Shown here: positions 31,005-49,670 of the stretch, piece after piece
Layout of the letters: each line of letters begins with the position of its first letter
Position numbering within the stretch: position 1 is the stretch's first letter
Notes under the pieces: model-generated
Seen by the model: only the letters and a program-made list of their open reading frames with translations
What the model was told of the DNA's origin: nothing
Database searches by the model: none
IMG/VR virus record: IMGVR_UViG_3300005525_000034
Location: 6,830-70,829 of that record
DNA from: a virus
Reading direction: 5' to 3' (one strand)
DNA: 64,000 bases
Translations under genes and position numbers: made by a program

Positions 31005-31018
31005 TGGTCGATGCCTCC

Positions 31019-31607: not shown

Positions 31608-32945
31608 TCACTCCTTGGTGATGGTGAGGGCCCGGCGGGAGTTCTCCTGCTGGGCGCGGATCATGCGCGCACGGGCCGCGTCCTGGCCGCCGGAATCGGC
31701 GGGGATGCCATTGATCGCGCTCAGCAGCGGGTCGGCGCTGTCGCTGCGGCCCATGCCCTGCTCCGCGTAGGCGTCGAAGGTGGCCGTCACGTAGTCGTCG
31801 CTGCGGCCCTCGAAGCGCTCCGGATCGACGCCGACCTTCTCGAGCGAATCGATCATCAGCTCGCGGTTACTGAGACCATCGAACGTGGGTCGTTCGCCGG
31901 TGATGGCCGTGGCGCGATCGATCAGCTCCAGGCGGGCGGTGACCAGGGCGTCGATGTCGAGGTCGTCCGCATCGGTGCGGCTGTCGATCTCGAGCTCGAG
32001 CGAGTCGAGTCGATCGACGAGGGCATCGAGGCGGCCCAGGTCGCGCTCATGGGCCTCGATGGCGTCATCGCGCTCGGCGCAGGCCCGGTCGTACATGGCC
32101 TTGGGCACCATCTTCCCGCCGCCGTCCTTCTTGGAGACCATGTAGGAGCCGAGATTGGCGGCGCCACCGCCGTCCATTTCGTCCTCGTCGCACTGTTCCA
32201 TTTCCTCGTCGTCACTGCCTTCCCGGGCCTCTTCGTCCTCCTCCATTGCCATGGGGGGAGGTGCCTTCTTCCTGCCCTTGGCGTCGGCCCGAACCTGGGC
32301 TGACAGGGCGGAAGCGAGGGCCTCGGTGGCATTGCTGAGCGCTGCCACAGCGGTCATGGAATCCTCCGTTTGGGGTTGTGGTTGGCCGTCGGCCGGGATG
32401 GGATCAACGGCGTAGGCGGAATCCATGTGCAACCGCACCTCAGGGCCTGCACGGCCCTTGCGCACGATCGCCACGTGGTTTCCTGAGATCTCCCTCTGGA
32501 CGCCGTCGTATCGCTGGCCGTCGGGGGTGACGCCGGGGGTGGCGTCGAACTTGACCCGATAGCCCACGGACACCTCACGGGCATCACCCCGCTTGATGGC
32601 GTCGATGGCCTCCCGGTCAGTGACCGTGACGAAGCCCACCGCGAACGGTGAGCGGTACTCGACCATCGATCCGGTGTGACCCCGCTGGTACTCCCGGCAC
32701 GTCTCAGGTGTCAGCAGCTCCGGCGGGTGCTCCAGGGTGACCGGGAGGTTCGCCAGGGAGAGCAGGGCGTCCTTGCGGGAGACCTCTTCCTCCGGCCGGT
32801 ACTCGATTGCCTCCTTCCCGTCCTGACGCCGATAGCGCTGCAGTCCGGTGCGCGCGAAGGTGGCATTGATGCGCAGATAGCCCTCGGGAGTTTCCTCCCA
32901 GTCGGACGAGATCTCGGCGCGATCAAAGCGCAGCGCTTCGCTCAT
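31608..32945 (-). CDS. DUF2213 putative prohead protease with C-terminal scaffold region
   Basis: TPEGYL..ATFARTG, PVTLEHP, REVSVGY, GNHVAIVRKGRAG; acidic coiled-coil C-terminal half. Confidence 0.85.
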   Translation of the reverse strand: MSEALRFDRAEISSDWEETPEGYLRINATFARTGLQRYRRQDGKEAIEYRPEEEVSRKDALLSLANLPVTLEHPPELLTPETCREYQRGHTGSMVEYRSPFAVGFVTVTDREAIDAIKRGDAREVSVGYRVKFDATPGVTPDGQRYDGVQREISGNHVAIVRKGRAGPEVRLHMDSAYAVDPIPADGQPQPQTEDSMTAVAALSNATEALASALSAQVRADAKGRKKAPPPMAMEEDEEAREGSDDEEMEQCDEDEMDGGGAANLGSYMVSKKDGGGKMVPKAMYDRACAERDDAIEAHERDLGRLDALVDRLDSLELEIDSRTDADDLDIDALVTARLELIDRATAITGERPTFDGLSNRELMIDSLEKVGVDPERFEGRSDDYVTATFDAYAEQGMGRSDSADPLLSAINGIPADSGGQDAARARMIRAQQENSRRALTITKE

Positions 32946-33016
32946 GGCCAATCGAAACCTGCCTGCATCCTGCGAGGTGGCATCTATGGTTTGGGCTGAA
33001 TGTTCCTGAGCGGAAC

Positions 33017-33244
33017 GTGTTTTCAATCGCGCCCGACGACTACGTTCTCAGCCAGCTGGGCGCCAGGGTGCGGGTGCTGCGGCAGGCGCGTGAAATGACC
33101 CAGGCGCAGCTGGCGGAGCAGCTGGGTGTGCAGCATCCATGGGTCGCCAAGGTCGAGGCCGGCACGTTGGCACCCACGCCAGGCCGCCTGCGGGCCCTCT
33201 CGCAGGTGCTCAACTGTTGCCCTTCGTATCTGCTTGCTCTCTGA
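33017..33244 (+). CDS. XRE-family HTH transcriptional regulator
   Basis: LGARVRVLRQAREMTQAQLAEQLGVQHPWVAKVEAG. Confidence 0.85.
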   Translation: MFSIAPDDYVLSQLGARVRVLRQAREMTQAQLAEQLGVQHPWVAKVEAGTLAPTPGRLRALSQVLNCCPSYLLAL

Positions 33245-33678: not shown

Positions 33679-33987
33679 TCAGCCGTCTTGCGGCTTCCGC
33701 TTGCCCTTCTGATCACCGGCCTGCCAGCTCTCGCTGGCCGATCGGTTGAGCTCCACCATCGTGCGGGCCTCGCTGGCCACGTTCGCCCAGTCGATGCCGC
33801 CATCGGCCGCGGCCGGCTGGGTGACCTCTTTCTTGTTGCTCACCGCTGGATCGGCATCTGTCCGACTTGATCCTGACAGCAACTCAAGCCAGCGCCAATG
33901 GAGACGCTCGGCCTCGTTCAGATCGCCACGGTCCATGGCCTTTGGATAGGCCGCCCATGCCGTGATGTGCTCGGGGATGTTGCTCAT
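33679..33987 (-). CDS. Hypothetical protein downstream of kinase
   Basis: ATGA overlap with kinase stop. Confidence 0.6.
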   Translation of the reverse strand: MSNIPEHITAWAAYPKAMDRGDLNEAERLHWRWLELLSGSSRTDADPAVSNKKEVTQPAAADGGIDWANVASEARTMVELNRSASESWQAGDQKGKRKPQDG

Positions 33988-35342
33988 GCGGCCTCCCAGG
34001 CGGCGTAGTGGCGGTCAACGGCCCGGCGGAACCTCTCCAGGTGCTTGGGGCCGAACGTCCGGTCCCGGGCCGCTTCTGCTTGCCTGACGACGGCAGCAGG
34101 CAACGGCGGCAACAGGCCCACCATCCGTTCGGCCGTGTGGAAGTCAACGCCGGTCTTGACCAGCGCATTGGCCTGCTGGATGCGCTCGCCCGGGTTCTTG
34201 ACGGTGTCCTCAAACCCGGCGGCCCACTGCTCTTCGTCGAAGGCGTCGGTCACGTCCTTGTAAGCCTTGGCGGCCTTGAAGCTCATGCTCATGCCGTGGC
34301 CGACCAGACGATCGATCGAAGGCTTCAGGCGCGCCAGCCGGCGGCTCTTGGTGTCCGTGCCGTTGACCTGCTCGTTGATCTTGACCAGGTGACCGCCGAG
34401 CACCGCCAGCGCCGCGGCCTCGGTTCGGATCTTTTCGTGCGGCAGGGTGTTCTCCACCTTCCGGGCCATTCCCCAGTCGATCAGGGTCGGGGTGCCATCG
34501 GGGCCGAGCAGCACGTTGCCGCCGTGCAGATCGCCGTGATGAAAGCCAGCATCGGCCATGGTGCGGGCGATGCGTGCCACACCGGCGGCATAGCGGGCCA
34601 TGGCGCCAGGCTGGCGCAGCACCTCTGCAGCCTCCGGGGTGATGTCCATCGCCCGGTGGTCGGCGGCCAGCTTGACGCCGGGCAGCATTTCGTAGGCGAA
34701 GGCCAGCCGGCCGTCCTGCAGCTTCTGCACCGGGCCGATCGGGCGGGGCCCAAGGCCGAGCGCATGGGCGCGCTCCATGCTTGCCCGCTCGCGTTCGACC
34801 ATGTTGCGGCGCTGCGTCGGGCGGTCCGGCGGCTCGTAGCTGGTATCCAGCGGATCGCCATTGGTGAGGCGGTCGACCTTGACGACCACAGGCCCCGATG
34901 GCGTCTCGGCCATGAAGGTGTCCCCAAAGGCGCCGCCGCCCAGGGCCCGGGCCGGCGGCTGGCCGTTGATCAGCAGCGTCCCGTCGTCCTGCAACTTGAT
35001 GGCGACCGGCAGGGTGGCAGTGCTGTTGGCGCGGTCCTGGGCGGCACGGGCCTGCTGTTCAGCGGCGGCCCGCTCTCGTTCCGCCGCCTTGCGGGCCTGC
35101 GTCGCCTGATGCAGCTGCATGAAGCGGCTGGGCTTGGCGGCGGCCGGCGCTCCACCTGCACCCTTTCGGCAGGTCTTTCTCGGGTCGATCCAGCCGGCGC
35201 CGCACTTCTCACCACCGGGGCCCGGAGCGCCGCCGCCGGTGAGGTCGAGCGCCAGCTGGCCGGGGCTCACCTTGATCCGACGCGCATCCAGGCGATCCTC
35301 CAGGGCATCCAGGCGGATCTGCAGAACCTGGATCGGGTGCAT
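33984..35342 (-). CDS. Ser/Thr protein kinase-like protein with RxD/Cys leader
   Basis: LGGGAFG, VVVK, HGDLHGGN, IDWG catalytic motifs; N-terminal RLDA..GQLALD..CGAGWIDPRKTCR. Confidence 0.85.
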   Translation of the reverse strand: MHPIQVLQIRLDALEDRLDARRIKVSPGQLALDLTGGGAPGPGGEKCGAGWIDPRKTCRKGAGGAPAAAKPSRFMQLHQATQARKAAERERAAAEQQARAAQDRANSTATLPVAIKLQDDGTLLINGQPPARALGGGAFGDTFMAETPSGPVVVKVDRLTNGDPLDTSYEPPDRPTQRRNMVERERASMERAHALGLGPRPIGPVQKLQDGRLAFAYEMLPGVKLAADHRAMDITPEAAEVLRQPGAMARYAAGVARIARTMADAGFHHGDLHGGNVLLGPDGTPTLIDWGMARKVENTLPHEKIRTEAAALAVLGGHLVKINEQVNGTDTKSRRLARLKPSIDRLVGHGMSMSFKAAKAYKDVTDAFDEEQWAAGFEDTVKNPGERIQQANALVKTGVDFHTAERMVGLLPPLPAAVVRQAEAARDRTFGPKHLERFRRAVDRHYAAWEAA

Positions 35343-35345
35343 CGC

Positions 35346-35633
35346 TCAGGTGGCAGATGGGCTCAGCAGCAGAGCACTGGTCTCCGCGTAGGCCAAGTCT
35401 GCGCGCTGCGCCACCAGCGCAATCGGCGTCGAGGTGGCCTGGTTCTGGATCACGACATCTGCCCAGGCCTGCTCAGCGGGAGTGCTGCACAGGGGCGCGA
35501 AGGCCTCGATCTGGGCACCCAGACGCTGGCGTTCGGCGCCGGCCGCGGCCCGGTAGCGCTTCAGCCACTTCAGCATCCCGTCCTTGAGCGCTGGATCCAT
35601 CTGGGAATGGGAACCGGTGGCTGTCGCCATCAT
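35346..35633 (-). CDS. Hypothetical protein downstream of metallopeptidase
   Basis: ATGA overlap; 95 aa. Confidence 0.6.
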   Translation of the reverse strand: MMATATGSHSQMDPALKDGMLKWLKRYRAAAGAERQRLGAQIEAFAPLCSTPAEQAWADVVIQNQATSTPIALVAQRADLAYAETSALLLSPSAT

Positions 35634-37030
35634 CGCTTGACCTCCGGAGTGGCCTGGGCGCGTCGCAGCACGTCATCCACCCAGTCGTAGACCTCGGGCG
35701 ACCGCTGGCGTAACGCCGCCGGTGAGACGACGAAGGCGGTGAAGGCCTCTGCGAACATTTCCAGCCGGTTCGTCATCGCGTAGTCGCTGACGAAGTGCCG
35801 AGTGTCGCCAAGCAAGCCGCCAAGAGGGTTGCCGGGTTCGGCGTCGCGGATGTTGCCCTCCAACGCTGGGCTGATCTTCACGATCGTGTTGCGGGTATCG
35901 CCGGAGGCGAAGTGAACCATGTGGCCGACCTCATGGACATAGGTGGCCATCAGCTGATCATTGCGGGATGACAGGAATGAAGTGGTATAGGCGCCACCCT
36001 TGTAGCCGGGCTGGCCAAACTGGCTGACGTGCCGATCAAGACTTGCTGTCATCCCTTCAGGGTTGAGTCCGGCGCCCCTCCAGGCGGCGTCATCAGGATC
36101 ATCCATCATGCAGATGATGCCGTTTCGGTGTGCAAGGCCGCCGGCTCCTGGCCTGCCCATCAGCTGCGCAGCAAGCAATCGATAGTCCAACTGGAGCTGC
36201 TGTTTCGCCAGCTGCAGCTCTTGCTTCTGATGCGCGAGTGCTTCATGCGTGGCAGCAGGAGTATCCCACCCCATTCGGCGATCATCCTCCATGCTGGTTT
36301 TGATGTTCCGAATCTGGCCGTTCACATACTTCACTCGTTCTTTCTCGAAGACAATCTCGCCAACAATCCGCCTGATGTTCGGGCTGTTCACTTCCACCTT
36401 CTTCAGCACCTCCTCGCTTAGCAGGTGCTCCATGTCTGAATCCTTGATCGGCCCGTCGATCTTGCTGTCTCTGCGCAGGTGTGGAGCAATGCTGTCGACC
36501 GCGACCAGCACGTTGGAGCCCATCAGGAACTTGGCCATCCGGCGGGCATTCCGGCCCACCTCCCCGGGCTGATCGCAGAGCTTCAAGGTGGCCGCGGCCA
36601 GGGTGTTGCCGTCGTAGCTGGCACCAGGCCGGGCGATGGAGCGCGCACGCATGTGTTTCACGAAGGCCATGCGGGCCTCCGGTGTGCTGACGTCCAGCTC
36701 GTCATCGACGCGGGTGTGGCTGCCCGGTTCGACATACCAGGCCGGCTTGATGCCGGTGCGCTGGAACTTGTTGATCTCCAGCGTCAGCTGGTCGCGCTGC
36801 TGCGGCGTCAGGTTGCCGATGCCCCTCGGCTTGATCTCGCCTCTCGCCAGGGCCATCAGGCGCTCGGCCCGCTCTCTGCTCAGGCTGCTCTGCGGATCGC
36901 TGCGGCACTCCTTCTTCAGGCTGATGCAGGCATTGCCGCAGCTGTAGCCGGTCTTGCATTTCCGCTTGGCCGCATCGAGGCGCAGCTCCAGGGCCGCCAG
37001 CCGGCCGCGCAGGTCCATCAGATTGTTCAT
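35630..37030 (-). CDS. Zincin-like metallopeptidase with RxD/Cys leader
   Basis: TYVHEVGH ... SDYAMTNRLEMFAEAF; N-terminal RLDAAKRKCKTGYSCGNACISLKKECR. Confidence 0.8.
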   Translation of the reverse strand: MNNLMDLRGRLAALELRLDAAKRKCKTGYSCGNACISLKKECRSDPQSSLSRERAERLMALARGEIKPRGIGNLTPQQRDQLTLEINKFQRTGIKPAWYVEPGSHTRVDDELDVSTPEARMAFVKHMRARSIARPGASYDGNTLAAATLKLCDQPGEVGRNARRMAKFLMGSNVLVAVDSIAPHLRRDSKIDGPIKDSDMEHLLSEEVLKKVEVNSPNIRRIVGEIVFEKERVKYVNGQIRNIKTSMEDDRRMGWDTPAATHEALAHQKQELQLAKQQLQLDYRLLAAQLMGRPGAGGLAHRNGIICMMDDPDDAAWRGAGLNPEGMTASLDRHVSQFGQPGYKGGAYTTSFLSSRNDQLMATYVHEVGHMVHFASGDTRNTIVKISPALEGNIRDAEPGNPLGGLLGDTRHFVSDYAMTNRLEMFAEAFTAFVVSPAALRQRSPEVYDWVDDVLRRAQATPEVKR

Positions 37031-39228
37031 GCTCTGCCCCTCCGGATCCGCACGGCTCTGAAGACGTTGTTGAGGCCCCATACCCACCGGTCATACTCGC
37101 CGTGCTCGGGCACGATCCAGTCCTCGAAGCGGGGATCCCGGTGGCGCTCTTCCCGCCGCTGCTGCGCTGCGCTGATGTCGCCGGACAGGATCCGTGAAGC
37201 GGACATGAACCGCCGGCCGGCGATGTAGCGTTCTGCGTCAATGCCGATCGTCTGCGTGCGGGCGGTCCAGCGGTCGTCCTTCGAGAACTCCTCAGGCCCC
37301 CCGTAGCGTGTGATGTCGTCATCGATGTTCGCCTGGGAATCGTCGAACCACTCCCGCAGGTCCTGGCGGCCGGAGGCGTAGACCTTCTGCCGGATCTGCT
37401 CCGTGGCCCACTTGAGCTCCTCGGTGGTCATCCGCTGCATCACCGCCGCCTCAAACAGGCTGCCCGCCAGTCCCGGCGCCCCTTTGGGCTGTGGATAGCG
37501 GATGTAGCCGTCATCCCCGAAGAACGTCTCGTCGTTCTTGGTGGCCATCTTCTTCAGGCCCGTTGGCCGCGGCAGGCCCTCGCCTTTGGGCTTCAGGGGG
37601 CGTTCCGGGAAGCTGGGCCGCTTGGGCCTCACCACCCGTTGCTCTCGGCCGTCCTTGGGCTTCTCCTTCTGATCAGGGACGTCGCCCTGGCCCTTGCCAT
37701 CCAGGGGCTTGGCGCCGACGAAATTGCCCTCGGGCATCCAAGCGCCTCCCGGATACCAGTGGCCGTCCGGCCCGTGCTCGCCGCCCGGCTTGGCCCGGCG
37801 GAGCTTGACCACGACGCTCGGTTTGCGGGTGCCGTTCTTGGCCGCCTCGGCCTTGTGCCGTTCCCGCTCGGCCTTGACCACCGCCTGCTGCTCGGCGCGT
37901 TCGGTGCGGAGCTTGTCGGCCAGGGCCCGGGCTTCCTCGGGCTGTGGGTTGCCAATGCCGCGGGGCTTGATCTGTCCCTTGGCCAGCTGCTCAAGGCGGC
38001 TGATGCGTTCGCGGCTGGTGGTGGCAGTCGGCTGGCTGCGGCACTCCTTCTTGATGCTGATGCACGCGGCCCCGCAGGCGTAGCCGGTGCTGCAACGGCG
38101 CTTCAGGGCATCCAGGCGGGCCAGCAGGCTGTCGATCCGGTCGGCTGAGTCGGAGCGGATCGTGGCCTCTATTCCGCGGATCGTGGCCCCTATTCCGCCC
38201 CCCCTGGAAACGCGGGAGAAACCAGTCAGGGACTGGGATCTGAGGTCGTTTTCGTGGCTATTTTCGTTTCCGCCCGGATTGGAGCGGGTCTGCGCCATCA
38301 GCTTGGCCTCAGCACGCGCCAGGCGCTTCGCCAGATCTTCGCGGTTGCGGCGCAGATAGCCGCGCATCGCGGTCTGCCCCTGCCCCTTGTAGTCCCAGCC
38401 GCGTTTCTCCATCTCGACGGCTATCCAGCGGGCCCAGATGTGGGCTGCCTGCTCCTGGTCGGTGTCGACGCCGAGCTGATTCCAGATCTGATCCTGCTGG
38501 ACATCACCGGCGCGCCAGCTGCGGCGGCGATACCCCTCACGGGGCCAGCCCGGTGGTTCCTCCGACCATTCCCCGACCTCAAGCGGTGGCCGCGGCATGG
38601 CCCCAACCTCATCCCAGTCCTTCTGCCAGCGCTTCTCCTGCTGATCGAGCTCCTGCTGGGCCATGCGCAGCCTGGCCACGGTGCGAGCGCTGCTCTTGAG
38701 GCTGCCGAAGGCCTTGCGATCGGTCTCGCTCAGGAAGCCCATCAGCTTCAGGGCCGATTCAGCGCTGACGGTGCGCGTCTCGCCGCCCACCTCCACCTGG
38801 AACTGGTGGACGACGTTCCGGCCGGTTTCGACGTTGGCAATGCTCTTCTCCCAGTCGGAGACACGCTTTTCGACCGGTTCGCCGCGGTGGTCAACGTCTT
38901 CGGTGAGGGTCCACTGCCAGGTGTAGGCGGTGAGCTTGGCGCCGGTGGGACCCACGATCGGCTCAGGGAAGACGATCGTCTCCTTGGGCTTGCTCCGCTT
39001 GGCCTCATAGGGCCGATCGATGGGATCTCCCCCCTCCCCCTTGCGGCAGGTCTTCTTGGGATCGATCCAGCCGCCACCGCACTTCTCCCCGCCGCCGGGG
39101 CCCTTGCCAGCCGCCGGTGCGCCGCCGGTCAGGTCCAGGGCCAGTTGGCCGGCGGCCTCGGCGCGCCGGCGGGCATCCAGGCGGGCCTCCAGGGCACCCA
39201 GGCGGGTCAGCAGTGCGGTGATGGTCAT
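37027..39228 (-). CDS. Two-module protein with two RxD/Cys modules and unknown domains
   Basis: CGGGWIDPKKTCR near N-terminus; internal RIDSLLARLDALKRRCSTGYACGAACISIKKECR. Confidence 0.75.
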   Translation of the reverse strand: MTITALLTRLGALEARLDARRRAEAAGQLALDLTGGAPAAGKGPGGGEKCGGGWIDPKKTCRKGEGGDPIDRPYEAKRSKPKETIVFPEPIVGPTGAKLTAYTWQWTLTEDVDHRGEPVEKRVSDWEKSIANVETGRNVVHQFQVEVGGETRTVSAESALKLMGFLSETDRKAFGSLKSSARTVARLRMAQQELDQQEKRWQKDWDEVGAMPRPPLEVGEWSEEPPGWPREGYRRRSWRAGDVQQDQIWNQLGVDTDQEQAAHIWARWIAVEMEKRGWDYKGQGQTAMRGYLRRNREDLAKRLARAEAKLMAQTRSNPGGNENSHENDLRSQSLTGFSRVSRGGGIGATIRGIEATIRSDSADRIDSLLARLDALKRRCSTGYACGAACISIKKECRSQPTATTSRERISRLEQLAKGQIKPRGIGNPQPEEARALADKLRTERAEQQAVVKAERERHKAEAAKNGTRKPSVVVKLRRAKPGGEHGPDGHWYPGGAWMPEGNFVGAKPLDGKGQGDVPDQKEKPKDGREQRVVRPKRPSFPERPLKPKGEGLPRPTGLKKMATKNDETFFGDDGYIRYPQPKGAPGLAGSLFEAAVMQRMTTEELKWATEQIRQKVYASGRQDLREWFDDSQANIDDDITRYGGPEEFSKDDRWTARTQTIGIDAERYIAGRRFMSASRILSGDISAAQQRREERHRDPRFEDWIVPEHGEYDRWVWGLNNVFRAVRIRRGRA

Positions 39229-41330
39229 CGGGCACCCGCCATGGCGTGCATGAACCGCCAAATCCGTTCGTCGCGGCTGTCGTTCCGGTTAGTGGGCCCC
39301 GGGAAGTCGTCCTGCCGCAGCCGGGCAATCAGCGCATCGAACATTGGCTCCATCGCCTCTGCCTGCTGCCGGGTGGGCCACAGGCCGTCACCCGCCTTGG
39401 GGTCCGCATTCCCCTTGTTCATGCCGCTGTCATGCAGCTCGCGGGTCAGGTAGGTGTTGCTCCTGCCGGCCTTGCTGAGCTTCAGCGAGACATAGGCCTC
39501 GAACGACCGTGCGAAAAGCTCCACATGGCTCATCCAGTATTTCTCGTTCACCATGCCACCGGCCTTCTTTACGGCCCGAAGAGTTTCGTGGCATTGCCGG
39601 ACGTATCCACTGTTCATCCAGGCATCCACCACAGCGGTCATGGCCTGACGTTTTTCGGGTGATCCACGGAAATCCGACAGGAAGCCGTCCCCCCTGGCAC
39701 TATCAGAGGCGTAGTTGTCCAGGGCGTGAGCCCATTCGTGCGATAGCGAACCGACGCCGTTCTTGCGGGTGAGATTGATGACCTTGAGACCAGACTCGTA
39801 GTGGGCAACGGCGCCACCCTTTCCGCGAGCACCGATCGCCAACCCCAACGTGCCGTTCAGGCCGATCGCGCTGTCGGGCAGGCCAATCGCATCCGCGAGG
39901 TCTACCAGTGCCTCGGCCGCCCTCTGAACGTGATGGGCGCGCTCGTCATCGGTGACTGAGTTGCCGTACTGCAGGCCCCGAAAGCCCAAGTCCTTGATGA
40001 TCGTGTCCGTCGCCGCTTGCGGTGTGCCGCCGACCTTTCGGCCGCCTTCTCGACGAGTGTGGCCGACATAACGGTCGGCAGCGCTGAATCGCCACTTGCC
40101 ATTGGCACCCTTCTGATCAAACGCTTCATTTAGGCTGGCGCCTTCCATGATCCTGGTCGCCGGCTCGACCATGCGCTCAAACGTCCCGCGCGCGTCACTC
40201 TTGTCGATCCCGCCGGTGCTGGCCAGCGCCTTGCTAAATTCATTCAACTGCCCATAAACAGTCGCCTTGCCGCCGGCACGGAGGCGGTTATACATGGAGA
40301 TGAGCGCATTGCCGACCGGGTTGTAATGGTCGCCATGAGTTTGGAAATAGCCTGCGCCTTCTGTTTTGCGGTATTTGTCGATCAGCTTATGAACTTCGGC
40401 CTGCAGCTTCTTGCGTAGCGTGCCCGGCTCTACATCCTTGTTGTCCTCAACAAACTGACGGATGGTTTGGAATGCCTCGAAATATTGTCGGCGAACAGTT
40501 TTGGCGTCAACGGTCTGATGGGGCTCCTGCTTCCTGCCGGTCGTGTTTTCCAGGCTCTGCCTGTTGCGTTCCCGGAGCTCGGACCCGCTGATGTAGGCGT
40601 CGATCTCCTTGGCCGACAGGTTCGGGAAGGCCCTGAGGCAGTAGTGGGCCTCCAGTCGGCCCAGAACGTTTTCGGGCGTCACCCCACTCACCAGATCAGT
40701 CGGGAAGTTCTTCAGGAGGTTGTCGCGGGTGAGGATCTTCTCGATCTCCCCTGAGGCCTCGGCCTCCTCGATGGTGCGAAACGCATTGCGCCGGTGGCGA
40801 GCCGAGTTGGCGATGTCCTCCCCGGCGTTCTGAATGGCGCTCTTGCGGGCGAACTCATAGTCGCCGGAGCCCTCCACAGTCTCAGCCTCACCTCGTGGAG
40901 TGCCCTTGCGGGCCCGCGAGGCCCGGCCGGCGGTCGCCTCCTTGGCCTTGGCGGCCTCCTGCGCTTTGGCAGCCTCCTGCGCTTTGGCAGCCTCCTCTGC
41001 GGCCTTGGCCTCCCGGGTAGCCTTGCGCTGCCCCAGGAGTTCCTGTGCCTTGCTGCCGCGGGCGCCGCGGAGCCTTTCCGCCATGGCCGCGGCCTCAGCC
41101 GGCTTGGGGGTGCCCAGACCGCGGGGCTTCACCTCTCCCCTGGCCAGCTGCTCCAGCCGACCAATCCGCTCCTTGCTGATCGCGGCGCCGCCTTCGCTGC
41201 GGCACTCCTTCTTGACGTTGATGCAGGTGGACCCGCAGCCGTAGCCGGTGGTGCATTTCCGGCGGGCGGCGTCCAGGCGGGCCTCGACCAGTTCAAGGCG
41301 ATCGCGCAGGGTCAGGAGTCGAGTGGTCAT
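39225..41330 (-). CDS. LPD1-like (large polyvalent protein domain) protein with RxD/Cys leader
   Basis: FRGLQYGN, LGLAIGARGKG.A.AHYE...INLT..NG.GSLSHEWAHALD, YW....ELFARSFEAYV. Confidence 0.8.
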   Translation of the reverse strand: MTTRLLTLRDRLELVEARLDAARRKCTTGYGCGSTCINVKKECRSEGGAAISKERIGRLEQLARGEVKPRGLGTPKPAEAAAMAERLRGARGSKAQELLGQRKATREAKAAEEAAKAQEAAKAQEAAKAKEATAGRASRARKGTPRGEAETVEGSGDYEFARKSAIQNAGEDIANSARHRRNAFRTIEEAEASGEIEKILTRDNLLKNFPTDLVSGVTPENVLGRLEAHYCLRAFPNLSAKEIDAYISGSELRERNRQSLENTTGRKQEPHQTVDAKTVRRQYFEAFQTIRQFVEDNKDVEPGTLRKKLQAEVHKLIDKYRKTEGAGYFQTHGDHYNPVGNALISMYNRLRAGGKATVYGQLNEFSKALASTGGIDKSDARGTFERMVEPATRIMEGASLNEAFDQKGANGKWRFSAADRYVGHTRREGGRKVGGTPQAATDTIIKDLGFRGLQYGNSVTDDERAHHVQRAAEALVDLADAIGLPDSAIGLNGTLGLAIGARGKGGAVAHYESGLKVINLTRKNGVGSLSHEWAHALDNYASDSARGDGFLSDFRGSPEKRQAMTAVVDAWMNSGYVRQCHETLRAVKKAGGMVNEKYWMSHVELFARSFEAYVSLKLSKAGRSNTYLTRELHDSGMNKGNADPKAGDGLWPTRQQAEAMEPMFDALIARLRQDDFPGPTNRNDSRDERIWRFMHAMAGAR
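40936..41010 (-). repeat. 18-bp in-frame tandem repeat (EAAKAQ)n linker
   Basis: AEEAAKAQEAAKAQEAAKAKEA. Confidence 0.7.
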
Positions 41331-44300
41331 CGGGCATCACCTCCAAAGGTCAGCAGGGCCAGGATCAGAGCGTCCAGATCGACCGCATCGCCCGCATCCA
41401 GGCGATCACCGCGGGCGCCCTCGATTCGGCTGAGCCTGCCATTGCGGACAACGGCAATGCCAGTGCCATCGATGAACGTGAACCCGGCGCGCTCATAGAG
41501 CGATCGGCGCTTGTCGCCATAGCCATCATCCTCATGTGCCTTGCAAAGCACGATCTGGCCCTCCTCCATGTTCGACACCAGGCCCTTCACCTGCTTTGAG
41601 ACCTCCATGGCAAACCGCCGCGCCACGTTCGTTGGCAGCTCCATGCGGTCTGCGCCCATGAAGGCCTCGCCTCCACCGGCGCCAGTCAGCCAGGCCAGTT
41701 CCAGGGCGTTGTTGACCTGCCCGTGGCTCAGATTGATGCCCTGCTCCCCCAGCTTCCTGGCGATAGGCTTCGCGTTTGCCTCTTCCACCGCGACCTGGAA
41801 GCTGAGCTTGTCCACCAAGCGGGGTTCCTTGCCTGGTCTTACTGGCAGGCGGAGAGGCTCCTCGAGCTGCACCTCGTAGCGGGATTCATGCCAGACGACG
41901 CCCTTGTCGCCGCGGCCACGCACCTCGTTTTTCTCTACCTGTTTCACGCCCCATTCCTGGGGCCCGCGGCTGAGCAGCTCCTCCTCGCGCGCTTTCTCCT
42001 TGGCCTGCCTTTCGCGTTCCTCCCGCTGGCGGGCGGCTGCCATCTGCTGAATGCGTTCCGCTGCGGCCATCGCATCCGCTTCTGACACCTTTGCGCCGCG
42101 GCCCAGCAACCGCCGGCCCAGGCCCTTGATCCGCTGGCCCAGGCCCCGCGCGGCGCCAGCCAGCTTTCCCTTGCGGCATTCCCCGCTGGTGCCGTAGTAG
42201 CTGCCGTCTGGCCGCTTGCAGCGCTGATCTAGGCGCACACTCAGGGCCGTCAAGCGATCGATCGCGGCATCAAAGCGACCGTCGACCGCATCACGCCGGC
42301 GGCCGCGGCCCAGCCGGCGCCGGTTGCTGGATCCCCCCAGGGTGGGGTCATCCCCCTCGCCGCCGAACTGTTCCTCGGCTCCCACCCGGAGATCGATGGC
42401 CTGCCGGGCCAGATCGTTCAGCCGGTCGTCGGAGGCCTTCATCTCCTCCAGCAGGCTGCGCATCGCGCCGGAGACGCTGCCGCTTTCTGCGGCCCGGCGG
42501 CCCATTTCTGCCCGGCGGGCCGCAGCCTCCGGAGAGTTGGCCTCTTCTTGCAGTTTCTGCATGAACTCGACCTTGTATTGCTCCCGGGCCTCGTCCTTGC
42601 TCATGCCCCGGTAGCGGCCGCGGCGCTCCAGCAGCCAGTCGGTCTCGAATAACTGCTCGGCCACCATGCCCATCTGGCGGGCATCGGCCGCTTTCATGGC
42701 ATTGAGCGTCTCCCGCATGATGCTGACGATGCTGCCCGGTCGGCCGCTGCTTGAGCCGGGCTGCACCACCTCTGGCGTCACCACCTCAGGGGTCACGGCC
42801 TGAGCCGATCCGCCGGTGGGCACCAGGACCCCGCCAGCGGGCCGGCGCTGGGCGCGCTGCCTCCGCAGCTGGGCCGCCTGCTCCGACCGGGAGGCCTTGA
42901 TCTCCTCCGCCTTGGCCGCGGCCGCACCACCCTTGAGGCGACCGATGCCGCGGCCGGTGGCACCGCCCTGAGCGGCCTGCTCGAGGCGCTTCAGGCGCTC
43001 CTTGCCGGTGGTGGCCCGGCCCTCCGATCGGCAGTCCTTGTCGGCGCTGATGCAGCTGCTGCCGCAGGCGTAGCCGGTCTGGCATTTCCGACGCAAGGCA
43101 TCGATGCGGGCAAGCAGGCTGTCGAACCGATTGGCCGAGTCGAACAGGTTCATGGTCAGCTCATCCACCGGGGCAGCCTCTTTGCGCAGCCCAAGGCGCT
43201 TGAGCTCCTCTTCCATGGCCTGCACGACCTGCTGACGCAGCTCCCGGGCCACCTTGTTGCGGTTCTCGCCTGCGGTGACACGGGCCGCGGCCTGATCCAG
43301 CGCAACGGCCACAGGGCCCGACACGCTCTTCAGCTGATCGAAGAACCGCAGCACCGAGCTGGCCTCATCGGCCTGCTGCTGGCTCTGTTCGACGTTGATC
43401 GTGTTGCCGCCCTTCTGTTCGAGCAGTTCCACCGCCTGAGTGCTTTTTGAGACGGCCCCAAGCAGGCGGGCCTCGCGGCCCAGGGACTTCTTCAGACCGT
43501 TGGCCAGCTCCGCCCGCGCCAGACCAGTGTCAACCGACTTCTCTTCGGTACCGAACAGATCGATCTCTTCCTGCGTCTGCCGGCTGCTGACAGCGAGGTG
43601 CTGGACATACTCCTCGAGCGTTTCGTCGGTCATCTTCGGCCAAGCCTTGAGGACCTTGTAGACCTCCCGCTGCTTGTCCTGATCGAGGCCGGAGCCGCCG
43701 ATCACGGCCGCTCGCCGCATGCGCAGCTTGCCCTGCACCACGTCGTTGAACATCTCGTCGGGCAGCTGGGCCAAGGCCAGGCCCTTCTCGGCCTTCCCGC
43801 TCCTCAGCGGCAGGCCCAGGGCCTTCACTTCTTCGAGGGTCTTGAGGCCGGAATCCCGGAAGAACTTGCCGGCATCGATTTCGGTGCCGGCCCCCTCGGC
43901 GATGTTCTGCATCGCCCCGATCGCCCGCGCCTCCTGCGCACTGCCGGCCTTCAGGTAGCGGACCGTCACCTCTTCGGCTCCAAGACGTTTGGCCAGCGCC
44001 AACCGGTTGTGACCGTTGACCACGTAGGTCTTGCCGTCTTTCGGGTCCTGCCAGACCGAGATCACCCCCGCCAGGTTGGGATCCCAGCGCTCCACACCCG
44101 ACAGCGAACCCACCTCGCCGGAGGCGCTGGAGCCGATCTTGTACTGGAAACGCTCGGGATCCACTTCCACGTCACCAGGCGCCACATCACGCACTTTTCC
44201 AGGCTTGGCTGCAGCCGCCGCGGCTTCAGGCACCTTGCCGGTGCGGACCATTTCAGCCACCCGCGGGTCCTCGAGCATTTTCTCCAGCCGGGCCGTCTGC

Positions 44301-45871
44301 CGCCCCTTCACCAGGCTTTGGGCCTTGGCCTCCCGCTGCATCTGCAGCTCCTGGGCCTGGGTCGCGGCGTTCTGGTCACCCTCCTGGGCCAGAGCCTGCA
44401 GCTGTCGCAGCCGCACCTTGCCGATCGCACTCGTCGGCTGCACCCGGCATTCCTTGCTGAGGCTGATACAGGCTGATCCGCAGCCGTAGCCCTTGCTGCA
44501 CTGGCGTTTGGTGGTCTTCTGCTGGAATTTCAACGCCCGCTTGTAATCCAGGCGTGCGGACGGATCTCGGGCCGCCAGGAACCCCTCGGATCGCAGTTCC
44601 CACTGCCGTTCATCGATCCCCTCCCAGGCCGGCTGGTACCCGATCGATGCCGAATCAAGGCGGAAACGGTAGACCAGCCCCTCGGACACCGCGCGGCCGG
44701 CGGTGATCCCCCGGGGGTGGCGATTCCAGTCGAGCACCTGCGCGCCAGGCAGCTGCTCTCGCAGGATGCTGCTGCACAGCCGGGCCACCGGATCGACGCT
44801 GTCCCGCCGCTGCCGGAACAGGGGCATGGTCTCGTCGTACTCGGTGACGCCAAACAGGGATTCCTGGTTCTGCTGGCCGCGGCTGAGAGCGCCCTGCAGG
44901 CGATCGCGCTCCGCGGCGCGCTCCTGCTGCCGCCAGGCCTCGGCGGCCTTCTGATCACCGGCCTCCTGGGCGGCCTTGCGCTGCTGACGGGCCAGCTGCG
45001 CCTGCCCGGACGAAGTGGTCACGTCCTGGGCATTGATCCCCGCCGGCTTGGCCTTTGGCGCCAGGCCGGGGTCGTAGCGGTCCGGGTTGGTCAGCACCGG
45101 CTCCTCATTGACCTCCGGAGGTGGCTCCGCCTCCTGCTTGCCCCGACGATCGAAGAACCCCTCGCGGATCGGCCGCGAATGCTTGTTGCCGGCGATCCGG
45201 ACATCCACAACGGTGCCGCCACGGGTCGCCTTGCCAACAAAGGCCCGATCCTCCGCGAACACCAGCATGTCGTAGTCGCCGACATCACGCAGCATGTTTC
45301 GGTGTGCCGAATAGGAGGCCTTGAACTCGGCCTGCCATTCCTTGCTGCGACGCTTGTCCGATCCGACCTCCGCATCAGCATCGGCCTTGGCGTCATCTTC
45401 CGCCATCCAGTGCGCGGCTGCTTCCTTGTCGCGGAACCAGTAATGATAGCCAGGCCGACCGTTAGTTGAGCGCCAGAACCTCAGTCCGCCCTTGTGCTTT
45501 TCGCGTTCCTGAGCAACGTCAAAATCCTTGTCGCCGCCGCTGGCGATACTCATGGGCTTGGCCTGCATGCCGCCGCTCACCTGCGGGGTTTTCTTGCTGC
45601 CGCTGCTGCCACCGTTCAGGCCGCGGCCGTCAGGCGCCGTGCCGGATGGCCCGTTTTTGCGGCACTCCTTCTTCGGATCGATCCAGCTGCCACCGCACTG
45701 CTCGCCACCTCCAGGGCCTTTGCCGGCCGCGGCCGCAGGCTTCGGTTTCGGAGGCGGGGCAGCAGGTGCGCTGAAGTCGAGCCCCAGCTGGCCGGGCGAC
45801 ACCTTGACCTTGGCATCCAGGCGCGCCACACGCTCCTCAAGTGCCCGCAGGCTCAGTTCAGCAACGTCCAC
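41327..45871 (-). CDS. Large polyvalent protein: several RxD/Cys modules, ParB/Srx-like domain, C-terminal GNAT-like domain
   Basis: 1514 aa; VISVWQDPKDGKTYVVNGHNRLALAKR (ParB-like); KRRSLYERAGF (GNAT-like); four Cys modules. Confidence 0.75.
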   Translation of the reverse strand: MDVAELSLRALEERVARLDAKVKVSPGQLGLDFSAPAAPPPKPKPAAAAGKGPGGGEQCGGSWIDPKKECRKNGPSGTAPDGRGLNGGSSGSKKTPQVSGGMQAKPMSIASGGDKDFDVAQEREKHKGGLRFWRSTNGRPGYHYWFRDKEAAAHWMAEDDAKADADAEVGSDKRRSKEWQAEFKASYSAHRNMLRDVGDYDMLVFAEDRAFVGKATRGGTVVDVRIAGNKHSRPIREGFFDRRGKQEAEPPPEVNEEPVLTNPDRYDPGLAPKAKPAGINAQDVTTSSGQAQLARQQRKAAQEAGDQKAAEAWRQQERAAERDRLQGALSRGQQNQESLFGVTEYDETMPLFRQRRDSVDPVARLCSSILREQLPGAQVLDWNRHPRGITAGRAVSEGLVYRFRLDSASIGYQPAWEGIDERQWELRSEGFLAARDPSARLDYKRALKFQQKTTKRQCSKGYGCGSACISLSKECRVQPTSAIGKVRLRQLQALAQEGDQNAATQAQELQMQREAKAQSLVKGRQTARLEKMLEDPRVAEMVRTGKVPEAAAAAAKPGKVRDVAPGDVEVDPERFQYKIGSSASGEVGSLSGVERWDPNLAGVISVWQDPKDGKTYVVNGHNRLALAKRLGAEEVTVRYLKAGSAQEARAIGAMQNIAEGAGTEIDAGKFFRDSGLKTLEEVKALGLPLRSGKAEKGLALAQLPDEMFNDVVQGKLRMRRAAVIGGSGLDQDKQREVYKVLKAWPKMTDETLEEYVQHLAVSSRQTQEEIDLFGTEEKSVDTGLARAELANGLKKSLGREARLLGAVSKSTQAVELLEQKGGNTINVEQSQQQADEASSVLRFFDQLKSVSGPVAVALDQAAARVTAGENRNKVARELRQQVVQAMEEELKRLGLRKEAAPVDELTMNLFDSANRFDSLLARIDALRRKCQTGYACGSSCISADKDCRSEGRATTGKERLKRLEQAAQGGATGRGIGRLKGGAAAAKAEEIKASRSEQAAQLRRQRAQRRPAGGVLVPTGGSAQAVTPEVVTPEVVQPGSSSGRPGSIVSIMRETLNAMKAADARQMGMVAEQLFETDWLLERRGRYRGMSKDEAREQYKVEFMQKLQEEANSPEAAARRAEMGRRAAESGSVSGAMRSLLEEMKASDDRLNDLARQAIDLRVGAEEQFGGEGDDPTLGGSSNRRRLGRGRRRDAVDGRFDAAIDRLTALSVRLDQRCKRPDGSYYGTSGECRKGKLAGAARGLGQRIKGLGRRLLGRGAKVSEADAMAAAERIQQMAAARQREERERQAKEKAREEELLSRGPQEWGVKQVEKNEVRGRGDKGVVWHESRYEVQLEEPLRLPVRPGKEPRLVDKLSFQVAVEEANAKPIARKLGEQGINLSHGQVNNALELAWLTGAGGGEAFMGADRMELPTNVARRFAMEVSKQVKGLVSNMEEGQIVLCKAHEDDGYGDKRRSLYERAGFTFIDGTGIAVVRNGRLSRIEGARGDRLDAGDAVDLDALILALLTFGGDAR

Positions 45872-45938
45872 AGACCAGCATCATCCCTGCTCCATTCTGG
45901 CTGGACTTGCTGACTGCTCTTTTCTCGAAATCAGCCAT

Positions 45939-46376
45939 TCAGCGCAGGTTCTCGAGCTTGTAGAGCGTCGTGTCGACGAGGGTGAGAACCGTGTCGATGT
46001 CGTTCTGGATCTCGCTGTCAGTGGCGACACCAGCGCGCACGCGCCGGACGTAGTTGCTCAGCTGGGTCGTGAAGGCCACGGGGTCGTCATTCGGCTGCGA
46101 CGGGCCCATGGGGTAGCTCTGGATGATGCCGTATTTGCCCTGGTAGCTCTCGATCAGACCATCGGCCAGGTCCTCAAGCTCTTCGTAGAACTCGCCCAGG
46201 GCCGAGTGCTGGGAGAACGAGCGCGACTGCAGGTGGAGCAGGTGGGCGGCGGTGACGGCATCCAGCAGCGTCTTGAAGAACTCGGCCGCCACCGCGCGGT
46301 CGGTCGTGCCGGCGTCGGGGGCGTCCTGGCGGGCAACGAGAGATTCGTAGCCGGGGGCCCAGAAGGAAGGGGTCAT
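45939..46376 (-). CDS. Ferritin/Dps-like (DUF5856-type) protein
   Basis: HLLHLQSRSFSQHSALGEFYEELEDLADGLIESYQG; C-terminal TLYKL. Confidence 0.75.
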   Translation of the reverse strand: MTPSFWAPGYESLVARQDAPDAGTTDRAVAAEFFKTLLDAVTAAHLLHLQSRSFSQHSALGEFYEELEDLADGLIESYQGKYGIIQSYPMGPSQPNDDPVAFTTQLSNYVRRVRAGVATDSEIQNDIDTVLTLVDTTLYKLENLR

Positions 46377-46394
46377 GGTCGTCGGTCGTGGTGA

Positions 46395-47450
46395 TCAGGC
46401 GGAGCGCTCCAACACCTCGCGGTAGGCGTCCCGGCGAGAGGCGCTCCAGCGGTTGCGCAGCGCCAGGCGAGACAGGGTCAACTCCTTGAGCAGTTCGGCC
46501 AGATCGGGTTCCGCGGAGTCTTTGCGGCGGCTGGCCGCCTTGCGCGAGTCGGGCATGAAGGCCAACATCGAGTCCCGCATCTTCTTCAGCCGTTCCGGCA
46601 TGCGGGGATCACCGCCCTGGTCCGGGTGATGCTTCATCAGCAGCTTCCGGAACTTGGCACGCACCTCATCGGCGGTGGCCGTCTTGGGGTCCAGGCCGAA
46701 CACATGCCAAGGCCGGAAGTTCTTGATCACGTCAATGCCGTTGATCACGGTCGGACCGTCGGGCAGGCCTCTCTCATTGTCGGGAACACGCACATGAGCC
46801 CTATAGACCTTCAGCCAGTCCTCCTTGGTCCTTAGCGGGTTGTCAGAGCCTGACATCGCCATCTGGAACATCTCGTCTCGCTTCAGCTCCGCGACTGTCT
46901 TGACGCCGAACGTCTTAAGCACTGCGGCTTTCACGTCCTTCATGCTTGGGGCCTTACCGGCTCCCTTGCCAGAGGTCGCCGGGGCCTCGCTCTCGCCACT
47001 GCCTGATTCCTTGGCTGGCGCTTTCTTGGCAGGCTTCTCCGCTGCAGGCGCAGAGGCCCCGCCACCGGCATGCTTGACGATGGCGGTCACCTTCTGGGCC
47101 GCGGCCCCACCCTTGGCCTTGCAGATCTTCCCCTTCTGGATGCAGGTGGCGCCGCAGGGATAGCCGGTGGTGCAGTTGCGGGGCTTGCCTTGGGCGGCAT
47201 CCAGGCGCGGACTTGCCCACACCTCCTGGTCGGTCGCATCGGAGCGATCGCCACCGCCGCCGGCGCCGACCGGCCGGTAACGAACGGCGCCGCCGCCGAT
47301 TGTGTAATCAAACAGGACACCATTGGAGCGGAATCGCCCCGAAACGTCCCCGGTGTCTTTGGACGGGTTGACCGATAGGAGCTGCACCGGCCGGATCAGG
47401 GTCAGCAGTTCTTCTCGGACAAGGCGGGCAATTTCCTGAAGGTTAGTCAT
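46395..47450 (-). CDS. J-domain (DnaJ-like) protein with RxD/Cys module
   Basis: PWHVFGL...EVRAKFRKLLMKHHPDQGGD; RLDAAQGKPRNCTTGYPCGATCIQKGKIC. Confidence 0.8.
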   Translation of the reverse strand: MTNLQEIARLVREELLTLIRPVQLLSVNPSKDTGDVSGRFRSNGVLFDYTIGGGAVRYRPVGAGGGGDRSDATDQEVWASPRLDAAQGKPRNCTTGYPCGATCIQKGKICKAKGGAAAQKVTAIVKHAGGGASAPAAEKPAKKAPAKESGSGESEAPATSGKGAGKAPSMKDVKAAVLKTFGVKTVAELKRDEMFQMAMSGSDNPLRTKEDWLKVYRAHVRVPDNERGLPDGPTVINGIDVIKNFRPWHVFGLDPKTATADEVRAKFRKLLMKHHPDQGGDPRMPERLKKMRDSMLAFMPDSRKAASRRKDSAEPDLAELLKELTLSRLALRNRWSASRRDAYREVLERSA

Positions 47451-47453
47451 GGC

Positions 47454-47750
47454 TCAGCTCCTCTCAGGACCAATGTCGACGTGAGCGCCGCCGGTGCGCT
47501 TGCCTTTGCGGCGCAGCTGCTCATTCTCATCTGCCGGGGTTTCCGGCGCCTTTGGCACAGGCGACGGACAGACCACCACGTCAGCCGCGATCGAGGCCTC
47601 CTCCAACGCCGCGGCCAGCAACTCACTGGATTCAGCCCCCTCTGCCAACGCGCTGCACTGGGCAAGCACATCACGGATCTCATAGATGCCGTGGTTGCGG
47701 CACCACTGGCCCAGCGTGAGAAGGGCAAAGGCGCGATTGGTTTGAGGCAT
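47454..47750 (-). CDS. Hypothetical protein
   Basis: 98-aa ORF ending 3 nt before J-domain gene start. Confidence 0.5.
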   Translation of the reverse strand: MPQTNRAFALLTLGQWCRNHGIYEIRDVLAQCSALAEGAESSELLAAALEEASIAADVVVCPSPVPKAPETPADENEQLRRKGKRTGGAHVDIGPERS

Positions 47751-47906
47751 CGACCAGGACAGGGCTGCACCACGGTAGGCAGGAACAACCTGGGGCCTGA
47801 ATACAGCAGCCTCGCCCTCAGGTCCACGGATGGCAGCCCAGGCCGTTCAGGATCTTGTATGCTGCTGAAGCCGCTTGGTGCGGTCATCCTGCCTTCACTG
47901 CGTGCC

Positions 47907-48077
47907 ATGCCTCGTATTCGGTCCGTTTCTCGACGGGAAGCAGCCCTTGAGATTTCCCTGCTGCTCGCCCTGGCCCTCTTGCCGATCACTGCGCTACTGG
48001 GCTTCAGCTGCATGCGCGACAACTATGCGCTCAACGATCTGCGCGCACCGATTGCCGCTCCACCATTGCATCAGTGA
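47907..48077 (+). CDS. Small membrane peptide
   Basis: Hydrophobic ISLLLALALLPITALLGF. Confidence 0.4.
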   Translation: MPRIRSVSRREAALEISLLLALALLPITALLGFSCMRDNYALNDLRAPIAAPPLHQ

Positions 48078-48132
48078 TCAGCTTGTTTCACGCCTCCCAC
48101 TCATCGAACATGACACAATCCATCGTCACATC

Positions 48133-48363
48133 ATGAACTCACTCATTCAGGCGCCATTGCACTACGAAAACACCTTGCTGGATCGTTGCCGACGTGCCTA
48201 CGACGAAGCTCCTGCAGCCGGTATGGCGAGCCGCAGCGGACTGACCCTGGTGCTGGAGCATCTGGCCGCAGAGATCATGGCTGCGCAGCACATGCGCGGA
48301 AACATGAGCGGGCACGACGCTGCGCGCATGTTGCTGGAAGGTGCCAAGCCGCAATCTCCGTGA
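48133..48363 (+). CDS. Hypothetical protein
   Basis: ATG 48133; TGATG coupling to next gene. Confidence 0.55.
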   Translation: MNSLIQAPLHYENTLLDRCRRAYDEAPAAGMASRSGLTLVLEHLAAEIMAAQHMRGNMSGHDAARMLLEGAKPQSP

Positions 48364-48620
48364 TGACTGACGTGATCTACGAGAGCCCACGGGTTGACGA
48401 TCATCCTCCCTCGTGGCGCATCACGAAACAGGCGAATGACTGCACAAATACGGCCATGGTTCGCTTCCATCGTGTCAATCGATTTCGTACCCTGCTGAAT
48501 CAGACAGCAGCATGGACACCCAACGGCTGGGATGATCGCCATTGGATCCCCACTATTTACAAGGTGCCTCGCCACCTGCTCGACATGGTTGAACAGCACA
48601 TGCAGCAGCAACAGCCATGA
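48363..48620 (+). CDS. Small Trp-rich protein (paralog of 48744-49001)
   Basis: LLNQTAAWTPNGWDDRHWIP..P...HMQ. Confidence 0.6.
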   Translation: MTDVIYESPRVDDHPPSWRITKQANDCTNTAMVRFHRVNRFRTLLNQTAAWTPNGWDDRHWIPTIYKVPRHLLDMVEQHMQQQQP

Positions 48621-49215: not shown

Positions 49216-49223
49216 GCGTAGTC

Positions 49224-49668: not shown

Positions 49669-49670
49669 CG

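Follow-up and report, generated by a model that had tools for sequence, protein, structure and literature searches.

The internal proteins of phage T4 carry a capsid-targeting sequence of about ten residues, which is cut by the gp21 prohead protease. Polyvalent proteins, as outlined in PMC5512222, string together unrelated effectors (LPD1, zincin-type peptidase, ParB-like, kinase and ADP-ribosyltransferase domains) and are predicted to be packaged and injected. The same source describes the Dar/Ddr proteins of P1 as large head-packaged proteins with a DdrB-type ParB domain and a zincin and, as far as it covers them, the MuF polymorphic toxins as variable toxin domains linked to MuF. MuC/Mor of Mu and SocB bind the host beta clamp via a QL[SD]LF-type motif, according to the relevant passages of PMC12867686 and PMC9690074. 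Here we analysed a stretch of 64,000 nucleotides of viral DNA (the window, to which all positions refer unless stated otherwise), corresponding to bases 6830-70829 of the virus record IMGVR_UViG_3300005525_000034 (70,829 bases, rated complete). The window has 65% G+C, and a structural operon of siphovirus type lies on its minus strand. Here, six large genes between those of a MuF-like minor head protein and a DUF2213 protein share a short helix-plus-cysteine module that stands ahead of unrelated effector units. Our best explanation, held with moderate confidence, is that they form a polyvalent-type effector cassette of a siphovirus of picocyanobacteria: six late genes, set between portal and MuF on one side and the protease-scaffold gene on the other, whose units carry address modules.

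Several features were reminiscent of polyvalent proteins. Unrelated effector domains occur in one polypeptide (four units in a 1514-residue protein, two in a 733-residue protein), the signature LPD1 and HExxH zincins are present, ParB only as a lead, and the genes lie beside portal, MuF and head genes, in the window as in 69 of 72 related loci. Unlike in polyvalent proteins, the string is mostly split into translationally coupled genes, MuF is separate and has no effector attached, and one module type carries a clamp-binding motif. Furthermore, a conserved helix-plus-Cys module stands ahead of every unit here, and neither "cysteine" nor "Zn-ribbon" occurs in the main text of PMC5512222. With P1 Dar/Ddr no sequence relation was detectable beyond the ParB-like lead; the head is of another type, and no shared module has been described for P1. 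The MuF polymorphic toxins differ in that toxin domains are not fused to MuF in our case and that what the N-termini have in common is the helix-Cys module rather than MuF. MuC/Mor, a transcription factor, and SocB, a toxin, are both produced within the cell, whereas the clamp motif described here is part of a leader that recurs on effectors of the head operon. The likeness to T4 internal proteins consists in a gp21-like fold (model with a predicted local distance difference test score, pLDDT, of 64) whose gene neighbours cargo-like genes with a short N-terminal helix in common. Unlike the T4 sequences, most modules of the present family are internal, they measure 55-75 residues with conserved Cys, and no conserved cleavage residue was detected.

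The helix-plus-Cys module

The preliminary description of the window had proposed that the six genes follow one grammar, a short leader and a small Cys module followed by an unrelated effector. This grammar was borne out by ten copies across the six genes: six of type B with four Cys, three N-terminal ones of type A with two Cys, and one of type C. In type A, an R-x-D-A helix leads into a P-G-Q-L-x-L-D-[LF] stretch, from which a Gly-rich linker, variable in length, runs to a two-Cys loop; this type was found at the N-terminus of the kinase, the 733-residue protein and the 1514-residue protein. Type B is built from a helix with two R-x-D-x-L turns, K-R-K, a four-Cys core (C-x2-G-Y-x-C-G-x2-C-I-x3-K-x-C) and a second helix. 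It is N-terminal in the zincin and the LPD1 protein, internal once in the 733-residue and twice in the 1514-residue protein, and occupies residues 93-110 of the J-domain protein. Type C is a two-Cys variant at residues 1218-1232 of the 1514-residue protein. When the six type B copies were made into a profile and searched against the virus record, it matched exactly those six places with E values of 1e-42 to 9e-23; as judged from these matches, the recurrence of the type B module is far beyond chance. The repetition of the unit inside two genes was confirmed for the 733- and 1514-residue proteins. The idea of an N-terminal leader held for the zincin, the LPD1 protein, the kinase and these two proteins, but not for the J-domain protein, where the module comes after a domain of about 80 residues.

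The four Cys were invariant in 63 aligned type B copies, and types A and C keep two. An AlphaFold model of the type B module, computed from the 63 sequences, showed short strands at a pLDDT of 63.5, and the four-Cys knuckle is probably metal-binding. Of 91 unique type B copies, 50 had an R-G-I-[GA]-type motif 21-45 residues past the first Cys, where 0.034 would be expected; it looks like a putative second docking motif. It lies in a Gly/Ala-rich stretch of the type B modules, for example at 41100-41140 on the minus strand and in loci L001-L072.

A predicted beta-clamp-binding motif

A hexapeptide form of the clamp-binding consensus is Q-L-x-L-x-[LF]. In 22 aligned type A copies, the helix residues R, D and A, one Q and the G/C/G/I/C of the loop region were invariant, and P-G-Q-[LM]-x-L was conserved. 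The invariant Q opens either Q-[LM]-x-L-x-[LF] as a hexapeptide or Q-L-D-L-[FL] as a pentapeptide, followed by a linker of varying length; the bacterial beta-clamp-binding consensus is given as QL[SD]LF in the passages concerned of PMC12867686 and PMC9690074. At most 110 residues upstream of the loop, the motif was present for 23 of 29 unique type A loops, where 0.028 would be expected (93 background matches in 362,869 residues, or 0.028 per 110 residues). It recurred in a separate metagenome protein set at 48 of 68 loops, in 41 of 51 proteins, and was absent from all 91 unique type B copies. The virus itself has no DnaN gene, as no PF00712 match was found.

We modelled kinase residues 1-75, with the 22-row alignment, in complex with DnaN of Synechocystis. 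The complex scored 0.78, a mark that 58 of 80 solved complexes but also 2 of 110 mismatched pairs attained, whereas the best of three controls scored 0.02. The runs agreed in at least 62% of contacts, and the pLDDT of the partner was at least 47. In the modelled interface, partner residues 21-36, which are the motif, face clamp residues 155-184, 263-268, 299-301, 341-349, 367-369 and 383-388. The last of these ranges belongs to the clamp C-terminus, and the contacts presumably fit the cleft between clamp domains II and III.

The motif is thus conserved, and binding to the clamp is what we infer from it: since their type A modules hold a canonical clamp-binding motif, the kinase and the 733- and 1514-residue proteins are predicted to dock on the host DnaN. 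Since, Cys residues aside, nothing in the type A leader is more conserved than the clamp motif, this leader appears to hold a host-cell address and not a capsid address. A search of the literature found no report of packaged or injected clamp-binding effectors. The clamp motif on head-operon or polyvalent effectors seems not to have been described before, and it predicts the host destination of at least three effectors. A clamp motif is useless inside a capsid, which speaks for an explanation without any packaging. In that case, the genes would encode late host-takeover or anti-defence enzymes for the producing cell, and the modules would be intracellular addresses (for the clamp, DNA or another hub) and recombination joints. 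The genomic context bears on this point and is treated below.

Occurrence in other viruses

The module turned out to be a widespread unnamed family. At E ≤1e-3, the type B profile found 194 proteins among 8000 candidates scored. A 63-copy profile run against 1.84 billion proteins matched 465 representative clusters at E ≤1e-3, of which 98 remained at E ≤1e-10, with up to seven module stretches in one protein. No Pfam or NCBIfam model covers the module, and among PHROGs only phrog_33618 does, to which no function is assigned.

The preliminary description had proposed such a profile as a test for a link to head gene clusters and for a variable set of effectors. Both were observed, and the description thus withstood its own test on this link. 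In 72 viral-contig loci, which were recovered through the module itself and whose neighbouring genes were identified by phmmer at E ≤1e-5, a homologue of portal, MuF, DUF2213, cement or capsid protein lay beside the modules in 69. The exceptions were L001, L003 and L029, of which the first two end at a contig edge; L001 retains the small genes p95 and p102 of the window. The modules always occupied one of two slots, the portal-MuF or the MuF-DUF2213 interval. In L014 (15978-16793 of that locus) and L015, an extra small module-bearing gene was seen about 4 kilobases downstream of the capsid gene, outside the usual slot.

Among the 91 unique type B copies, 28 were N-terminal and 61 internal; the module is therefore not simply an N-terminal leader. 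Successive modules within one open reading frame were 239-683 residues apart (median 456, n=49), and gene starts coincided with module starts. The spacing together with the internal copies argues that each module stands at the beginning of a unit of effector size, be this the beginning of a gene or not; it would mark unit boundaries in separate genes and in polyproteins alike. In the relatives, the module was fused to LPD1, Pkinase/APH/ABC1, M90/ATLF-like zincins, DnaJ, ADP-ribosyltransferases, zeta toxin, DUF676 esterase and LRAT, and the majority of module-preceded units matched no family. The units of the window were found patchily among the 72 loci: LPD1 in 44, the ParB-like unit in 29, the J-domain part in 24, the kinase in 13 and the zincin in four. 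Units that are neighbours in the window had their best matches in different loci. This patchiness and mosaicism point to cassette shuffling, with the conserved module sequence probably serving also as the joint for unit exchange between phages. These comparisons lend good support to a cassette of polyvalent-type effectors that is modular, has been shuffled and is fixed in the head operon.

The variability also bears on the idea that the genes encode structural ejection proteins, with a portal conduit or plug as their main role, the helix and Cys loop used for assembly and the enzyme domains secondary. Such a role would fit genes that adjoin the portal gene, the more so as in many loci the stop codon of the portal gene lies within the overlap with the first gene that bears a module. 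The content is highly variable and patchy, though, the domains belong to enzyme and toxin families, and a podovirus-type ejectosome is not expected because the window has siphovirus-type tail genes and a gene sized like a tape measure; we regard this role as highly improbable.

Effector genes

The six large minus-strand genes of the preliminary description were recovered with strand and extent unchanged. It had called most of them translationally coupled. Indeed, ATGA stop/start overlaps occurred at five junctions, namely from the 1514-residue to the LPD1 gene, from LPD1 to the 733-residue gene, from there to the zincin, from the zincin to p95 and from the kinase to p102, and p95 and the kinase gene are separated by a 3-nucleotide gap. 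Its effector calls for kinase, zincin, LPD1 and J-domain were likewise sustained by family matches, sub-threshold for zincin and DnaJ, and by the HExxH and HPD motifs. All genes in this section are on the minus strand unless stated otherwise.

The J-domain protein (46395-47450) has its type B Cys core at 47121-47174 and its HPD motif at 46620-46628; the DnaJ match reached 27.0 bits for a cut-off of 27.8. Its N-terminal 80 or so residues are common to residues 358-440 of the 1514-residue protein, where they also precede a type B copy. An open reading frame of 98 residues (47454-47750, minus strand) stops 3 bases ahead of the start codon of the J-domain gene; it has no family match and may belong to the cassette. 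Next follows a module-less DUF5856 protein of the ferritin/Dps-like kind (45939-46376; PF19174, E 5e-18; phrog_858). The RQDA leader once ascribed to it was not substantiated, as neither module profile matches this gene.

The 1514-residue protein (41327-45871) consists of four module-delimited units, the 733-residue protein of two. The former opens with a type A module (45656-45871; clamp-binding motif 45773-45790) and continues with type B cores at 44447-44500 and 43031-43084, a ParB-like unit at 43172-44329 and the type C loop at 42176-42220. It had been described as ParB-like plus GNAT-like. The ParB-like part can be kept as a lead: the unit had an Atlas score of 0.95 with 146 shared features, its ten best named matches were all ParB families and it contains an N-G-H-N-R motif, but it had no Pfam match and the whole protein no PDB sequence match. 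The GNAT-like part was not supported, since the C-terminal unit had no Pfam match up to E=5 and its best Atlas score, 0.85, was to unrelated and inconsistent families.

The LPD1/CLCA_X zincin-like protein (39225-41330; PF18796, E 6e-14, and an NF041907 match) has an N-terminal type B module with its Cys core at 41202-41255, and an HExxH motif at 39726-39740. In the 733-residue protein (37027-39228), an N-terminal type A module (motif 39130-39147, loop 39040-39081) and an internal type B core (38041-38094) precede two effector parts for which no family was found. The zincin (35630-37030) carries an N-terminal type B module (Cys core 36905-36958) and HExxH at 35921-35935; its M90/ATLF matches were sub-threshold. 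A module-less protein of 95 residues, p95 (35346-35633), is conserved in L001, and a second one of 102 residues, p102 (33679-33987), in L001 and L002. Between them lies the kinase (33984-35342), with its N-terminal type A module (clamp-binding motif 35241-35258, two-Cys loop 35163-35204), APH/ABC1/Pkinase matches and an H-G-D-L-H-x-x-N catalytic loop at 34515-34538. Antisense to the kinase gene, a 560-residue open frame was seen on the plus strand (34008-35690). Its G+C content at third codon positions was 0.73 compared with 0.86 in the kinase frame, and high G+C is the most likely source of this frame, which would then be an artefact.

Head proteins and possible packaging

The DUF2213 protein (31608-33026, minus strand; PF09979, phrog_530) combines an N-terminal domain that models as a prohead protease fold with a helical, scaffold-like C-terminal half. 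The N-domain model was built from 17 sequences and reached a pLDDT of 64 and a predicted template modelling score of 0.59. The alignment used for folding stayed shallow because a second homologue search gave only relatives of at least 59% identity. In a wide VIA structure search, the best match was the T4 gp21 prohead protease (5jbl_A; Z 7.9, root mean square deviation 3.3, 129 residues aligned) and the next-best had a Z of 2.9. A His, a Ser and a His were invariant across the 17 homologues, and PHROGs labels the family as head maturation protease. The N-domain thus models as a T4 gp21-like prohead protease. A match of the protein to NusA in the PDB sequence search (E 0.036, the sole row) was discarded as chance.

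A protease fold next to the cassette is what the model put forward in the preliminary description, taken strictly, would need. There, the R-x-D-A helix is a T4-like capsid-targeting sequence that loads the proteins and is then cleaved, and the DUF2213 protease cuts the polyproteins, whose modules do stand at unit boundaries. A further argument comes from Pa193 gp24, a DUF2213 homologue of 478 residues, whose helix-turn-helix 286-326 remains as a pentamer beneath the capsid five-fold vertices, as presented in PMC11456595. In a MAFFT alignment that included PB1 gp22, this capsid-interior helix was aligned with an amphipathic, R-L-D-A-L-like helix that the window's DUF2213 protein has in its scaffold half, a likeness that would let cargo helices enter scaffold bundles. 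The likeness between leader and scaffold helix is weak, however. A 13-residue position-specific scoring matrix of the leader gave at best 7.6-11.5 bits on eight DUF2213 proteins compared with a median of 20 for leaders, and shuffled sequences attained such scores in 4-18% of 300 trials. Scaffold mimicry by sequence, while visible, was therefore rejected as statistically not significant; it is retained as a hypothesis because the DUF2213 helix matches the Pa193 gp24 helix by position.

Other points against a cleaved leader come from the modules themselves. A T4-type L/I-x-E cleavage site was considered and rejected, Glu reaching at most 13-15% at any leader position, and neither a conserved Glu nor another obvious cleavage residue was found at positions ahead of the Cys motif. 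The internal position of 61 of the 91 type B copies is a further point against this model. In addition, the E217 and Pa193 papers, in the sections concerned, leave cleavage open. We consider this T4-like scheme possible but unlikely. A better description of the "leader" would be that of an address module marking the units, one version of which would hold a host clamp address.

For a place in the virion, two observations on the ParB-like unit can be put forward. It matched the "portal protein" profile phrog_21 in the C-terminal part of the latter, with an E value of 6e-54, meaning that a homologous unit is fused to portals. It was also 41-43% identical to part of a Cys-free 2563-residue protein of the T7-like Prochlorococcus phage P-SCSP1g (L081, 5699-13390 of that locus). 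The gene of this protein comes after the gp12 tail-tube gene, in the slot which we take to be that where T7-like phages keep internal core proteins. The portal fusion and this homologue argue for a place in the virion. By analogy with them, and from the operon position, we infer that the cassette proteins are built into the prohead and leave it with the DNA; the polyproteins may be cut by the DUF2213 protease. The same data weaken the explanation without packaging, together with the tight translational coupling in the head operon and the portal-to-protease placement, which is strict at 69 of the 72 loci. Moreover, polyvalent proteins, which are predicted to be packaged (as set out in PMC5512222), typically contain LPD1, zincin and ParB domains, and a late host takeover would be of little use. 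Although the operon is already broken by an opposite-strand cassette of small open reading frames, as an explanation without packaging would allow, we find that explanation clearly improbable.

Within the favoured reading of a polyvalent-type cassette, each effector unit would open with an address module of about 55-75 residues, made of an amphipathic R-x-D-A helix and a Cys loop. In type A, the clamp motif in its flexible Gly-rich stretch would dock on host DnaN, that is, on DNA under replication or repair; type B would offer a four-Cys knuckle, probably metal-binding, and the separate R-G-I-[GA] motif. A tentative and, in our estimate, rather doubtful extension is a tag with two addresses: the helix would mimic the capsid-binding, bundle-forming helix of the DUF2213 scaffold and load the units, the gp21-like protease would separate them, and once injected the units would be targeted to host hubs by their motifs, the clamp motif in type A and R-G-I-[GA] in type B, so that virion-borne kinases and other enzymes would be tethered to the replisome seconds after infection.

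A number of points weigh against the favoured reading. The module was found in no cultured phage; a type B query matched PaV-LD weakly and a type A query none. In the Synechococcus phage S-CBS4, the same slot is filled by glycosyltransferases and a methyltransferase. These are ordinary enzymes, so that the slot alone does not imply cargo, and they can be quoted in favour of the explanation without packaging. The motif pattern was unmatched at 6 of 29 type A loops. The score of the clamp complex may reflect memory of the model, since clamp-peptide complexes have already been solved; the modelled clamp is a Synechocystis stand-in, and the fold of the partner is itself uncertain. We read the complex model as likeness to known clamp ligands and not as proof of binding. 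With a pLDDT of 63.5, which is low, the fold and metal binding of the type B knuckle are guesses. The DUF2213 model is moderate too, and a Z below 8 can reflect a common arrangement, gp21 here standing alone above the remaining matches. When this model was compared with the PDB by Foldseek, no structure matched at E ≤0.001, and the list was headed by OB-folds of single-stranded DNA-binding proteins with template modelling scores below 0.2.

Genome and host

The structural operon runs in the order large terminase (61419-62906, minus strand), portal, MuF, cassette genes, DUF2213, cement, major capsid and tail genes. The tail genes are of siphovirus type and include a 1687-residue gene sized like a tape measure. 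The MuF-like minor head protein (49831-51198, minus strand; 455 residues) has PF04233 (E 1e-8) as its sole domain, matches head-morphogenesis PHROGs and has no toxin fused to it, the effectors being encoded as separate genes. Cement (decoration) protein (31019-31603, PF22758) and major capsid protein (30075-31022, PF09950, E 1.7e-52) follow the DUF2213 gene on the same strand.

The portal protein (51997-54090, minus strand; PF06381, E 1.6e-68, PF20106, phrog_146) has a C-terminal extension that includes DUF6496. An acidic Cys-rich stretch with the DUF6496 match (PF20106, E 4e-8) was seen at residues of about 500-580 (52300-52700, minus strand). Residues 606-693 (52012-52275, minus strand) correspond to the last 90 or so residues and are kept in the module-bearing relatives L007 and L058, whereas tblastn found no match to them in the portal region of the module-less S-CBS4. 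On these three comparisons, this C-terminal part could be a cargo docking site.

About 2 kilobases at 47750-49830 interrupt the minus-strand head operon; the best open reading frames there are short plus-strand ones. Those at 48186-48620 and 48624-49001 look paralogous, and other small ones are Cys-rich. None of the small frames of this region had a Pfam or PHROG match, and the G+C content drops to 0.626 over 48001-50000. Between the portal and terminase regions, ThyX (PF02511) and a dCTP deaminase-like gene (PF22769) are encoded on the opposite strand (56184-58041, plus strand).

The nearest cultured relative by the DUF2213 protein is S-CBS4, with 45.6% identity; a Megablast search of cultured phages with the 24-kilobase head region gave no match. 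Among 185,579 species, with one genome each, the module was found only on contigs of two Cyanobium metagenome-assembled genomes (four loci) and, weakly, of one from Trichocoleus (two loci). Since S-CBS4 is closest by DUF2213 and the module is confined to these cyanobacterial contigs, the host is most likely a picocyanobacterium.

Conclusions

The finding ties 465 unannotated metagenomic protein clusters to phages of freshwater picocyanobacteria. It also gives a function-level handle on DUF2213, which models as a gp21-like protease fused to a scaffold. If the cassette proteins are packaged, they would constitute a natural plug-in system that sends arbitrary enzymes into the cell with the phage DNA, and whose unit marker is defined by its sequence and can be searched for.

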